Origin: Escherichia coli
Lineage (GTDB): Bacteria > Pseudomonadota > Gammaproteobacteria > Enterobacterales > Enterobacteriaceae
Assembly: GCF_003790525.1 (NCBI RefSeq)
Contig: NZ_CP033635.1
DNA: 64,000 nt
Strand: one strand, 5' to 3'
The notes under the pieces were generated by a model that saw only the letters and a list, made by a program, of their open reading frames with translations, did not search any database and was not told where the DNA came from. Shown here piece by piece: positions 47,048 through 50,530 of the stretch. The position numbers and the translations under genes were made by a program. Numbering within the stretch: position 1 is the stretch's first letter; each line of letters begins with the position of its first letter.

Positions 47048-47551
47048 TCACCCAACAATAACCGTCAGCGCATGATTCCCCTGTCGCAGTATACGCCGAT
47101 AAGCGCTAATTAATTTTTCCATATCAAGCATGATGGATGCAAAGAGTTGCCCCTCTAACTCTTCTGAAAAGGTTACTCCCGGATAAATCTCCATTTCATT
47201 GAGTCGCTGAATGGAAAACTGTTTACGCAGCACATTTCGGTCAAGAGCTTCCAGGCGGTCGATTGTCGCAGCTAACTCCTGATTCCAGGTCAACCCCAGG
47301 AAACCATCTATGCCATCTTCGAGGCTGTGTTCACCAAGCACGGCACGACTCAACGGATCATTCTTCGCTGGATCGAACGCAGAGGTGCCTGTCAGGCCAA
47401 AATGTAAAAAATCCCAGCGTTTATCAATATCCAGTCGGCGTAATCCTGAAAGCGTGTCATGAATATTGTCCATTAAAGGTTTTTCAGCTGACTCAAGCAG
47501 TTGGTTAATCTTTTCTGAGTCGATTTCCGCAAAATAGCCAATCATTCCCAT
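47048..47551 (-). CDS. yfbM: DUF1877 family protein YfbM
   Basis: 167-aa ORF recognised by length and sequence as YfbM; convergent with nuoN. Confidence 0.8.
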   Translation of the reverse strand: MGMIGYFAEIDSEKINQLLESAEKPLMDNIHDTLSGLRRLDIDKRWDFLHFGLTGTSAFDPAKNDPLSRAVLGEHSLEDGIDGFLGLTWNQELAATIDRLEALDRNVLRKQFSIQRLNEMEIYPGVTFSEELEGQLFASIMLDMEKLISAYRRILRQGNHALTVIVG

Positions 47552-47650
47552 TTATTTTTCCTCCGTTGAATTTCATGTTTCGCATCTTAAAACAGATGAG
47601 GGAAAATAAAATGCGCATGTTGCTTTTTCTGGACCCGCCTCGAGAAAATT

Positions 47651-48472
47651 TTATTGTTTACTGTTGTATAACAAGGTGATAACGCCATCCACGACCTGGG
47701 CCATTTTCTGATAATTCAATCTGTCTGCGGTATCACCGGGCAAGTGGTATTGTTTATTACGATAAAAAGCGGTGTCGGTAATCATTACGGCGGGAATATC
47801 GTGTTGCCAATAATTAAGGTGGTCAGAGAAATCAATGCCGGGAATAAACCCTGGGGCATTCATAGAATAAACAGATAAATCCTGAGATGACAACAATGCC
47901 GCTTTTAGCTGACGAACGGCGTTGATATCCTGCATTCTGCCGACCACGGCAATAAAGTCTCCCCGATCGGGATAAAGCCAGGACATTGCCGGGTAAGGGT
48001 AATCCTGACTACCAGGCGCAGAGTCGTAATAGCCAATCATCTCCAGCGCTATCATTAATCTAACTGGACGCTCAAGCGAAGCTGCATGTACCGCGCTCCC
48101 CATTTCATCGCTACGAAAGAAGGGCGGTTCTTCCGACGCATAGGCGACCAGCTGCACGCCAGTTTTCGGTGCTTGCTGCTGTAACAAACGTGCCAGTTCG
48201 AGTAATCCTGCCACGCCACTGGCGTTATCATCCGCGCCCGGCGTATAGGTCAATTGATCGTTTTCATAACTGCTGGCAGAGTCATAGTGCGCACCAATAA
48301 TAATCAGCGGTCCATCGGCAGGACCATAATCAGCAACAATGTTTTTGTAGGGGCCACCCGTAATGGGGGCGTCCTGCGAGGTAACTCTGGCACCGCTACT
48401 GACAAAGACCTCTTTTATATACTCTGCGGACCTTTTCAGATTATCAATATTGTCGGCACTACGGGGATGCAC
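47651..48472 (-). CDS. yfbL: M28-family zinc peptidase YfbL, 5' end apparently frameshifted (possible pseudogene)
   Basis: Peptidase frame opens only at GTG 48472; M28 motifs present (GAHYDS, DNASG, ASEEPPF); the expected ATG and signal peptide lie upstream in a different frame (see findings). Confidence 0.6.
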   Translation of the reverse strand: MHPRSADNIDNLKRSAEYIKEVFVSSGARVTSQDAPITGGPYKNIVADYGPADGPLIIIGAHYDSASSYENDQLTYTPGADDNASGVAGLLELARLLQQQAPKTGVQLVAYASEEPPFFRSDEMGSAVHAASLERPVRLMIALEMIGYYDSAPGSQDYPYPAMSWLYPDRGDFIAVVGRMQDINAVRQLKAALLSSQDLSVYSMNAPGFIPGIDFSDHLNYWQHDIPAVMITDTAFYRNKQYHLPGDTADRLNYQKMAQVVDGVITLLYNSKQ

Positions 48473-48763
48473 AGTTTGTGTAAGATAACGAACTGTTTTT
48501 TCTAATTGCTCAGGACTTGCGTGTCGGGGCGTTGGCGGTAATGCATTGACCCAGGGTTGGTAAAAAATAATCAGAGGGAGTGAAAACAGAATTAATATAA
48601 TAAAAGCAAAGTTTATTTTTTTTCATATGCAAATTATTAATGGGTTGCGTTATTGAATCATTATTTGTTATAGGTTTCGATATTGTATTTTATCAAGATC
48701 AGCAGGATGATACAAAGAGTGTATTTTATGTCTGGTGCCTGAGTTTATTTAAAAGGATTTTAT

Positions 48764-50530
48764 ATGCGAAATAAAAATATAATCATGTTGCTTATGAGTA
48801 GTTTGATTTTGTCAGGATGTGGGCCGGAATCTGAGAATAAGGAAAGTCTGCAACAACAACCCAGTACTCCCACGGACCAGCAAGTGCTTGCCGCGCAACA
48901 TGCTGCAATAAAAGAGGCCGAGCAAAGATCCGTCGCCGCTAAAGCCACTGCAGACGCGAAAGCAAAAGCCTTAGCCCAGCAAGAAGCGCAACAATATTCA
49001 GACAAACAGGCTTTGCAGGGGCGCTTACAGGCGGCTCCAAAATATCAACATGCAGCCAGAGAAAAAGCAGCCTCCCAAATCGCAAATCCAGGAACCGCTC
49101 GCTATCAGCAGTTCGATGATAATCCGGTTAAGCAGGTAGCGCAAAACCCGTTGGCGACATTTAGCCTTGACGTCGACACCGGCAGTTATGCGAATGTACG
49201 CCGTTTTCTCAATCATGGGCAGTTGCCTCCGCCAGATGCAGTGCGGGTGGAGGAGATGGTGAATTATTTTCCGTCAGACTGGGTTATTAATGATAAAAGT
49301 AATAATAAAGAACCTGTTCCCGCCAGTAAGCCAATACCTTTCGCTATGCGCTACGAACTGGCACCTGCGCCGTGGAATGAACAGCGAACATTGCTGAAAG
49401 TTGATATCCTGGCGAAAGATCGCAAAAGTGAAGAGTTACCAGCTTCTAATCTGGTCTTTCTTATCGACACTTCTGGTTCAATGATTTCTGATGAACGTTT
49501 GCCACTTATCCAGTCTTCGTTGAAATTATTGGTCAAAGAACTTCGTGAGCAGGATAACATTGCCATCGTGACCTATGCTGGCGACTCCCGTATTGCGTTG
49601 CCTTCTATCTCCGGGAGTCACAAGGCGGAAATTAATGCCGCAATTGATTCGCTGGATGCCGATGGCAGTACCAATGGCGGTGCCGGGCTGGAACTGGCTT
49701 ATCAGCAGGCGGCGAAGGGGTTTATTAAGGGTGGCATCAATCGCATTTTATTGGCCACTGATGGTGATTTTAACGTCGGCATTGACGATCCTAAATCGAT
49801 TGAATCAATGGTCAAAAAACAGCGGGAGTCCGGTGTTTCTCTGTCCACGTTTGGCGTGGGGGATAGCAATTACAACGAGGCAATGATGGTGCGAATCGCC
49901 GATGTTGGCAACGGTAACTACAGCTACATTGATACCCTCGCTGAAGCACAGAAAGTATTGAACAGTGAAATGCGGCAGACGTTGATTAGCGTAGCAAAAG
50001 ATGTCAAAGCGCAAATTGAGTTTAACCCCGCGTGGGTAACGGAATACCGTCAGATTGGTTATGAAAAGCGTCAACTTCGGGCGGAAGATTTTAATAACGA
50101 CAACGTTGATGCGGGTGATATTGGCGCAGGTAAACATATAACGTTGTTATTCGAATTAACGCTGAAAGGGCAAAAAGCATCAATTGATAAGTTACGCTAT
50201 GCCCCGGATAACAAATCAGCGAAATCGGACAAAACAAAAGAACTTGCCTGGTTAAAGATTCGTTGGAAATACCCGCAGGGAAAAGAAAGTCAGTTAGTTG
50301 AATTCCCGCTGGGGCCAACAATAAACGCGCCCTCTGAAGATATGCGTTTTCGCGCAGCAGTAGCTGCATATGGGCAAAAGTTACGCGGTTCTGAATACCT
50401 GGATGAAATCTCATGGCAGCAGATAAAACAGTGGGCTCAGCAGGCAAAAGGGGAAGATCCACAGGGTTACAGGGCGGAATTTATTCGCCTGGTTGAACTG
50501 GCGGGTGGTGTGACTGACATCAGTCAGTGA
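48764..50530 (+). CDS. yfbK: von Willebrand factor type A domain lipoprotein YfbK
   Basis: 588-aa ORF; lipobox LILSGC after N-terminal signal; Ala/Gln-rich linker; MIDAS motif DTSGSM; start codon choice uncertain (K-12 annotation may be shorter). Confidence 0.75.
   Translation: MRNKNIIMLLMSSLILSGCGPESENKESLQQQPSTPTDQQVLAAQHAAIKEAEQRSVAAKATADAKAKALAQQEAQQYSDKQALQGRLQAAPKYQHAAREKAASQIANPGTARYQQFDDNPVKQVAQNPLATFSLDVDTGSYANVRRFLNHGQLPPPDAVRVEEMVNYFPSDWVINDKSNNKEPVPASKPIPFAMRYELAPAPWNEQRTLLKVDILAKDRKSEELPASNLVFLIDTSGSMISDERLPLIQSSLKLLVKELREQDNIAIVTYAGDSRIALPSISGSHKAEINAAIDSLDADGSTNGGAGLELAYQQAAKGFIKGGINRILLATDGDFNVGIDDPKSIESMVKKQRESGVSLSTFGVGDSNYNEAMMVRIADVGNGNYSYIDTLAEAQKVLNSEMRQTLISVAKDVKAQIEFNPAWVTEYRQIGYEKRQLRAEDFNNDNVDAGDIGAGKHITLLFELTLKGQKASIDKLRYAPDNKSAKSDKTKELAWLKIRWKYPQGKESQLVEFPLGPTINAPSEDMRFRAAVAAYGQKLRGSEYLDEISWQQIKQWAQQAKGEDPQGYRAEFIRLVELAGGVTDISQ

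Follow-up and report, generated by a model that had tools for sequence, protein, structure and literature searches.

In a 64,000-nucleotide stretch of Escherichia coli DNA (contig NZ_CP033635.1 of RefSeq assembly GCF_003790525.1; hereafter the window), the genes yfbM, yfbL and yfbK lie side by side between nuoN and rbn. Our analysis points to these probably being three adjacent, functionally independent genes in a variable nuoN-rbn segment. Of these, yfbK and yfbL would be accessory and repeatedly lost, yfbL being knocked out or turned down in the window by one extra A directly after its start codon (a run of eight, A8, in place of seven, A7), and yfbM would be constrained. A first-pass annotation of the window had treated the three as one cluster and had named independent phylogenetic distributions among the observations that would speak against it; independent distributions are what our co-occurrence check shows. 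The identities that it gave the three genes were confirmed by open reading frames (ORFs) and Pfam. The features at issue are as follows.

47048-47551, minus strand: yfbM, intact, encoding a 167-residue cytoplasmic DUF1877 protein (ORF and Pfam).
47651-48626, minus strand: yfbL, an M28 metallopeptidase gene with an N-terminal signal or anchor segment and a +1 frameshift (alignments and Pfam).
48616-48623, minus strand: A8 homopolymer, the frameshift site, directly after the ATG at 48626-48624; A7 in intact alleles.
48510-48626, minus strand: out-of-frame product of the canonical yfbL ATG, 38 codons and a stop.
47651-48472, minus strand: residual yfbL ORF of 273 codons from GTG 48472, the first canonical in-frame start, without the export segment.
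48627-48763: divergent yfbL-yfbK intergenic spacer, AT-rich, 137 bp from ATG to ATG, the same in intact strains.
48764-50530, plus strand: yfbK, intact, encoding a 588-residue lipoprotein with a vWA domain (ORF and Pfam).

A gene was scored as present when at least 80% of it was found in a genome, across 5,426 complete E. coli genomes. By this measure yfbM is present in 5,355 genomes (98.7%), yfbL in 3,292 (60.7%; lost in 39%) and yfbK in 2,512 (46.3%; lost in 54%), and the difference between the last two counts leaves about 780 genomes with yfbL and without yfbK. At least 80% of the segment 46900-50700 is present in only 2,524 of the 5,426 genomes, which bears out the strain-level variation that the first-pass annotation had seen here. 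Compared with other E. coli, yfbM has a ratio of nonsynonymous to synonymous substitution (dN/dS) of about 0.04, and yfbL and yfbK each have one of about 0.2. Together, these ratios and the presence counts mark yfbM as a constrained, near-core gene and yfbL and yfbK as dispensable.

The common yfbK deletion removes approximately 48895-50492 of the window (48894/6..50492). Its end points are the same in FXCREC043 (L006; L numbers are our labels for compared sequences), which has an intact yfbL, and in SE11 (L005), whose yfbL also lacks 48039-48364. A different yfbK deletion is found in a divergent E. coli (L023), and one strain has IS100 within yfbK. Lesions of yfbL other than A8 include IS1 in SBF22 and internal deletions in other strains. 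E. whittamii has kept yfbK and lost most of yfbL, and both the window lineage and the CFT073/Nissle group keep yfbK without a working yfbL.

The same independence is seen in more distant genomes. Two sequences, L008 (an enterobacterial metagenome contig) and L009, carry the divergent yfbK-yfbL pair at the same chromosomal site without yfbM, with YfbL identities of 68% and 62%, respectively; the position of yfbM is occupied by a Septu pair, PtuA/PtuB, in L008 and by yfbP- and yfbN-like genes in L009. Superficieibacter has yfbK, yfbL, yfbP and yfbN, again without yfbM, and one Citrobacter has yfbK alone. Genes for YfbL relatives with 50-55% identity occur on their own in three unrelated settings, of which two are named (Taklimakanibacter and Usitatibacteraceae), and no M28 peptidase gene neighbours the distant YfbK relatives in the cases examined outside Enterobacteriaceae. 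The test for joint gain, retention or loss of yfbK, yfbL and yfbM across genomes thus failed, and their independent distributions speak against one functional cluster of the three.

Exact or near-exact matches, searched by megablast in the same genomes, occur only in a small group that includes SMS-3-5, and by this evidence the window appears to come from a phylogroup-F-like E. coli with the allele set of the SMS-3-5 group. The plus-strand gene order is nuoM, nuoN, yfbM, yfbL, yfbK, elaD and rbn. The K-12 orthologues yfbK (b2270), yfbL (b2271) and yfbM (b2272) lie between nuoN and elaD/rbn too, ordered and oriented as in the window, and the proteins are 90% (YfbK), 95% (YfbL) and 97% (YfbM) identical to those of the window. 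Four differences separate the two loci: the window lacks yfbN-yfbO-yfbP, which K-12 has between yfbM and nuoN; indels in the linker and loop make its YfbK 13 residues longer; its yfbM is unusually diverged at synonymous sites; and its yfbL has A8 where K-12 has A7.

That yfbL is frameshifted had been noted in the first-pass annotation, and the cause lies in this run. From ATG to stop, the gene measures 976 nt in the window compared to 975 nt in the closest intact allele. Its minus-strand 5' end reads ATG AAAAAAAA T, whereas intact yfbL reads ATG AAAAAAA T in K-12, CFSAN027346, SE15, sequence type 648 (ST648) and LS45. With the extra A, a ribosome that starts at the ATG is out of frame and meets a stop after 38 codons (MKKNKLCFYYINSVFTPSDYFLPTLGQCITANAPTRKS, then stop), and since a TGA overlaps the ATG in the correct yfbL frame, no upstream start can rescue the gene. 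GTG 48472 is fifty-one codons in, beyond the hydrophobic export segment. It also accounts for the 291-bp divergent region described previously, which spans the distance from the yfbK ATG to the GTG left in the broken yfbL and has to be replaced by the 137-bp spacer; its AT-richness holds (GC content 0.317 in 48500-48799).

RefSeq starts A8 alleles of yfbL at ATA 48616 and presents them as unflagged genes of 320-321 codons; in SMS-3-5 the annotated gene is 966 nt long and carries no pseudogene flag. Records NC_010498.1, NZ_AP022098.1, NZ_CP032085.1 and NZ_CP074824.1, with ATCC 25922 included, list A8 yfbL as an intact 320-321-residue 'M28 family metallopeptidase' under the Prokaryotic Genome Annotation Pipeline (PGAP). 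Because of this non-canonical ATA start, the likely pseudogene is invisible in the annotation. The test for an expressed M28 gene failed in the window, where A8 breaks the yfbL frame between the start codon and the end of the export segment. In this strain yfbL would be off or strongly turned down, its remaining in-frame starts being very weak (ATA) or past the export segment (GTG).

To estimate how frequent A8 is, we combined allele-specific searches with the alignment spans of genomes sampled at even spacing from the ranked matches. Among 31 genomes with a yfbL at least 99% identical to that of the window, A8 was found in 30; the remaining one, LS45, has A7 in a yfbL otherwise identical in sequence to that of the 30. 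The same lesion occurs on an ST648-type allele (WP4-S18-ESBL-09, L025), on a CFSAN-type allele (bovine strain 7_29_23A, L028) and on a phylogroup B2 allele (ATCC 25922, L027). An exact copy of the B2 A8 allele is carried by at least 60 genomes, among them CFT073, Nissle 1917 and ATCC 25922, each represented by several independent assemblies. Among the 31 rows of the evenly spread sample that span the yfbL 5' end, three have A8 and one (GF66.1) has lost the start codon. Lesions seen in single assemblies could be errors; lineage-wide ones cannot. To judge from these alignments, A8 is a real mutation on at least four allele backgrounds that appears to have arisen independently in several E. coli lineages. 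The best-supported reading of the recurrent A7-to-A8 change is a mutational hotspot, the products of which would have been fixed in several lineages.

Two further sequences bear on yfbL. GF66.1 (L029) carries a K-12-type yfbL without the G of the ATG (GCATAT-AAAAAAA), which RefSeq flags as frameshifted; this may be one more independent lesion within these few bases or an error of that one assembly. Positions 115907-116882 of NZ_CP058715.1, a 126-kb record from the pangolin strain M172-1, hold the same yfbL allele as that strain's chromosome. The record is presumably the single plasmid match among the yfbL matches, and its yfbL copy would stem either from capture of a piece of the chromosome or from misassembly.

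An intact yfbL allele encodes a Peptidase_M28 protein (PF04389, E = 1e-24), and the window ORF has every one of the metal-ligand motifs GAHYDS, GADDNASG, ASEEPP, ALEMIG and FSDHLNY. The M28 zinc ligands (His, Asp, Glu, Asp/Glu, His) and the catalytic Glu are retained, with one ligand changed from Asp to Glu. YfbL shares the M28 fold family with the leucyl aminopeptidase of Vibrio proteolyticus (Aeromonas) and with Legionella LapA, and its His, Asp, Glu-Glu and His metal and catalytic motifs align with the ligands of the Vibrio enzyme. It differs from both in having Glu as the second Asp ligand (ALEMIG) and in its long hydrophobic N-terminal segment. NCBIfam gave only matches below cutoff, LapA being found at E = 9e-14 but with 51 bits against an equivalog cutoff of 600 bits. 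The product of intact yfbL is thus most likely an exported or membrane-anchored di-zinc M28 aminopeptidase.

In YfbK, Pfam identified vWF_A (PF12450), VWA (PF00092) and YfbK_C (PF12034), with E values from 6e-67 to 2e-21. The lipobox, the Ala/Gln/Lys-rich linker and the intact metal ion-dependent adhesion site (MIDAS) that the first-pass annotation had read from the sequence are all present, and the lipobox and MIDAS are conserved in our alignments. The parts of the protein are laid out along the gene as follows.

48764-48820, plus strand: signal peptide and lipobox LILSG-C19, followed by G-P.
48821-49093, plus strand: Ala/Gln/Lys-rich linker, residues ~20-110, of a length that differs between alleles.
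49094-49399, plus strand: N-terminal conserved domain (vWF_A, PF12450).
49277-49333, plus strand: hypervariable surface loop within the PF12450 domain, residues ~172-190.
49448-49951, plus strand: vWA domain, with MIDAS residues D235-x-S237-x-S239 at 49466-49480 and T303 and D333.
49979-50503, plus strand: YfbK_C (PF12034), a beta-sandwich followed by a helical domain.

The N-terminus of YfbK carries the lipobox pattern [LVI][ASTVI][GAS]C of predicted lipoproteins, with Gly and not Asp at position +2. Escherichia and Superficieibacter share the lipobox L-S-G-C with Cys19, in which L16, G18 and C19 are invariant. Because the +2 residue is Gly, YfbK would, by the Asp+2 rule of E. coli, be sorted to the outer membrane and anchored there, facing the periplasm. 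The AlphaFold2 model (mean predicted local distance difference test score, pLDDT, 87.6) places residues 38-90 in one long helix. In this model, a helical stalk of about 50 residues would carry the N-terminal domain, the vWA domain with its complete MIDAS, the beta-sandwich and the helical domain. When YfbK is aligned with 63 distant relatives (64 sequences), T303, D333 and the MIDAS sequence D235-T-S237-G-S239 do not vary; by analogy with proteins of similar build, YfbK would most likely bind an acidic side chain of a partner protein through a bound metal ion.

The vWA, beta-sandwich and helical domains of this core are arranged as in ArnB, the Sec23-Sec24 core and the inter-alpha-inhibitor heavy chain, a resemblance already in print, at sequence identities of only 12-20%. 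Unlike these proteins, YfbK is predicted to be a periplasmic lipoprotein with an N-terminal domain of its own (PF12450). Zinc finger, gelsolin and VIT domains are absent from YfbK, and nothing points to control by phosphorylation or to covalent transfer of a ligand. The best sequence-level matches to its vWA domain in the PDB are the aerotolerance proteins BatA/BatB of Bacteroides (4jdu, 3ibs); Bat proteins are membrane-spanning, operon-encoded, single-vWA proteins and, unlike YfbK, lack PF12450 and YfbK_C.

The family is large: 7,156 clusters at 50% identity match the core (residues ~105-585) with E < 1e-30. All 64 relatives examined have the three Pfam domains in order at the C-terminal end, and their N-terminal parts vary, with carboxypeptidase-regulatory-like, anti-sigma zinc-finger, STN and SoxY domains. 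Outside Enterobacteriaceae, YfbK-family genes (L019, 8826-11398; L032 from Sphingobacterium, 5001-8327; L031, 1996-4524) adjoin genes for extracytoplasmic function (ECF) sigma factors or a TonB_C protein, and each of the ECF sigma factor genes lies beside an unassigned ORF that may encode an anti-sigma factor. These contexts, with the anti-sigma zinc-finger and STN N-termini, hint at an envelope-signalling role. The most divergent part of the yfbK gene is 49201-49400 (residues ~146-212), with 80-88% nucleotide identity to other alleles. A four-residue insertion, SNNK, is found in window YfbK in the lower-confidence surface loop (~172-190) of the N-terminal domain, and this loop may be a site of diversifying selection.

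YfbM matches DUF1877 (PF08974) over positions 1-162 of the 163 in the model (E = 7e-34) and PDB entry 1RYL, 'hypothetical protein yfbM', which belongs to the same family (E = 1e-105). Its AlphaFold2 model was unusable (pLDDT 49.5), the alignment being shallow and restricted to Escherichia. Close relatives were found only in Escherichia and Shigella by a word-based, insensitive search. We propose that YfbM is a small cytoplasmic DUF1877 protein under strong purifying selection, and that it would not depend on yfbK or yfbL. The window yfbM differs from that of other E. coli with a dS of 0.31-0.39, four to five times the 0.06-0.09 of nuoN and rbn, at a dN/dS of 0.04, and a yfbM at least 99% identical to it is found in only 120 of 5,376 matching records; the divergence may reflect introgression or an old polymorphism. 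Shigella flexneri has a 107-residue YfbM (P0159 and relatives), present on at least 1,000 contigs, that aligns over the whole query at 56% identity. This suggests an internal deletion, by which the near-core yfbM would have been degraded in that lineage.

The surroundings of the three genes are variable as well. The nuoN-adjacent slot (46981-47047 in the window, 2475-4729 in L003, 6978-8900 in L008, 7408-9050 in L009 and 6215-7857 in L015) is a variable insertion site, empty in the window and filled with yfbP-yfbO-yfbN in K-12. Two other enterobacteria have yfbP/yfbN homologues in the slot without yfbM, and in L008 it holds the Septu defence pair (PtuA, E = 4e-168; PtuB, E = 2e-69). On the other side, elaD, a deubiquitinase gene on the minus strand at 50601-51809, lies between yfbK and rbn. 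GC content reaches its minimum for the window here (0.33-0.38), no other gene in the comparison has as high a dN/dS (~0.4), and the B2 strain SE15, E. albertii and E. whittamii lack elaD at this site; elaD looks like a later insertion between yfbK and rbn. Consensus scans of 46900-50700 gave promoter and terminator matches at chance level (10 versus 7.1±3.2 and 5 versus 3.6±2.1 in shuffled sequence, respectively), and no Rfam family was found in 44000-54000.

Full-text searches found no mechanism for yfbK, yfbL, yfbM or DUF1877, and yfbK was mentioned only in passing, in screens for persister formation and conjugation efficiency. A binding site for LldR within yfbK was found by genomic systematic evolution of ligands by exponential enrichment (gSELEX; PMC10272880). 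The earlier statement that none of the three has an established function is thus broadly true; it does not take account of the crystal structure of YfbM, the published fold class of YfbK and a phenotype of yfbL. A 2025 preprint reports phage N4 resistance for the Keio deletions of yfbL and yfbO; plasmid copies complement both, and cross-resistance to the further phages tried was not seen (bioRxiv 10.1101/2025.09.29.679331).

Several points weigh against the independence of the three genes and the loss of yfbL. Several enterobacterial lineages, at 62-68% identity, retain yfbK and yfbL as a divergent pair, and most E. coli without yfbK also have a damaged yfbL; because of this conserved pairing and joint damage, a functional link between yfbK and yfbL is possible. 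The ORF downstream of A8 is intact in every A8 lineage examined and RefSeq counts it as a gene, and residual YfbL expression from A8 alleles is possible. We infer the outer-membrane location, ligand binding and peptidase activity from sequence. The N4 result comes from a single preprint on K-12, the bulk screen of which did not detect yfbL (10.1101/2025.09.29.679331).

The pairing could mean that yfbK and yfbL are a two-gene envelope module, in which the M28 peptidase processes the vWA lipoprotein or its ligand and one is useless without the other. The divergent adjacency is kept in Escherichia, Superficieibacter and the two enterobacterial contigs, the two genes have a similar dN/dS of about 0.2, and the identical end points of the yfbK deletion beside intact or damaged yfbL suggest sequential decay. 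However, synteny among close relatives can be plain inheritance, and no pairing was seen outside Enterobacteriaceae in the cases examined. One gene is also repeatedly found without the other: approximately 780 E. coli genomes have only yfbL of the two, yfbK stands beside no working yfbL in E. whittamii, the CFT073/Nissle group and the window lineage, and the Citrobacter has only yfbK. We therefore consider such a module unlikely, although it is the alternative that we take most seriously.

It is also conceivable that A8 yfbL is no pseudogene, and that enough YfbL is made from the in-frame ATA or through polymerase or ribosome slippage on the A run. The intact downstream ORF in all A8 lineages, the 320-321-residue proteins annotated by RefSeq and the persistence of the allele in widely sampled lineages are consistent with this. 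In E. coli, however, initiation at ATA has about 1% or less of the efficiency of ATG, and runs under 9 give little slippage. In addition, the strong upstream ATG puts ribosomes in the wrong frame, and YfbL started at ATA would lack the Lys-Lys n-region of the export signal. A functional A8 allele is in our view improbable.

If yfbL is indeed lost, the N4 phenotype offers a possible reason. We hypothesise that E. coli at times benefits from losing the envelope proteins YfbK and YfbL, for instance under attack by N4-like phages. A more speculative and rather doubtful proposal is that phages select on the A7 run, which would act as a mutational switch. N4-like phages would then depend for infection on YfbL as a periplasmic aminopeptidase, and its convergent inactivation (by A8 in CFT073, Nissle 1917, ATCC 25922 and the SMS-3-5 group; by deletions in ~39% of E. 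coli) would be a natural, previously unannotated resistance polymorphism masked by the RefSeq ATA start.

The run might further be a phase-variable contingency switch that toggles YfbL and susceptibility to N4-like phages. As in the contingency loci of Neisseria, Haemophilus and Campylobacter, a mononucleotide run at the 5' end of the coding sequence (here codons 2-4) sets the frame by its length and changes recurrently. The same +1 change has occurred independently at least four times, LS45 is A7 among 30 otherwise identical A8 genomes, and yfbL deletion gives N4 resistance (10.1101/2025.09.29.679331). Unlike those loci, however, the yfbL run is short and seems lineage-stable. Seven or eight A's are few for fast slippage in mismatch-repair-proficient E. 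coli, and to our knowledge E. coli does not use many homopolymer contingency loci. Fast phase variation seems unlikely because the A8 state is nearly uniform within lineages (30 of 31 window-type genomes and all 60 listed genomes with the CFT073/Nissle allele), and the other lesions (deletions, IS1 and start-codon loss) are irreversible. We give phase variation little credence.

The first-pass annotation had found no evidence of a defence or toxin system, and we agree. An unrecognised anti-phage defence or toxin system of yfbK, yfbL and yfbM could be imagined from the variable region and the Septu pair in the neighbouring slot of a related genome, but it is very improbable: PADLOC matched none of its families to YfbK, YfbL or YfbM, their domains are typical of envelope or housekeeping-type proteins, the reported deletion phenotype is phage resistance and not sensitivity, and the three genes are distributed independently. 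Homopolymer indels are frequent errors in long-read assemblies and the single cases WP4-S18-ESBL-09, 7_29_23A and GF66.1 could be errors, but we rejected a sequencing or assembly error as the source of A8, which is hardly credible when 30 independent assemblies share the window allele and at least 60 genomes share a second one, with several separate assemblies each of CFT073, Nissle 1917 and ATCC 25922.

We thus favour three independent genes, two of which, yfbK and yfbL, would have been lost repeatedly in E. coli by deletions, insertion sequences and a hotspot frameshift. All three are already catalogued E. coli y-genes, and the locus is nothing new in kind; it is a case of ordinary accessory-gene decay. 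The new detail is a hidden, homoplasic yfbL frameshift in the widely used strains CFT073, Nissle 1917, ATCC 25922 and SMS-3-5, where the gene is annotated as intact. The adjacency of yfbK, yfbL and yfbM in the variable nuoN-rbn segment is a warning against inferring a functional cluster from position. Homoplasic A8, beside frequent deletions of yfbL and yfbK, marks both products as putative envelope proteins that E. coli repeatedly discards, and the A8 lesion together with the N4 preprint may provide a route to a first physiological role for the YfbL peptidase.

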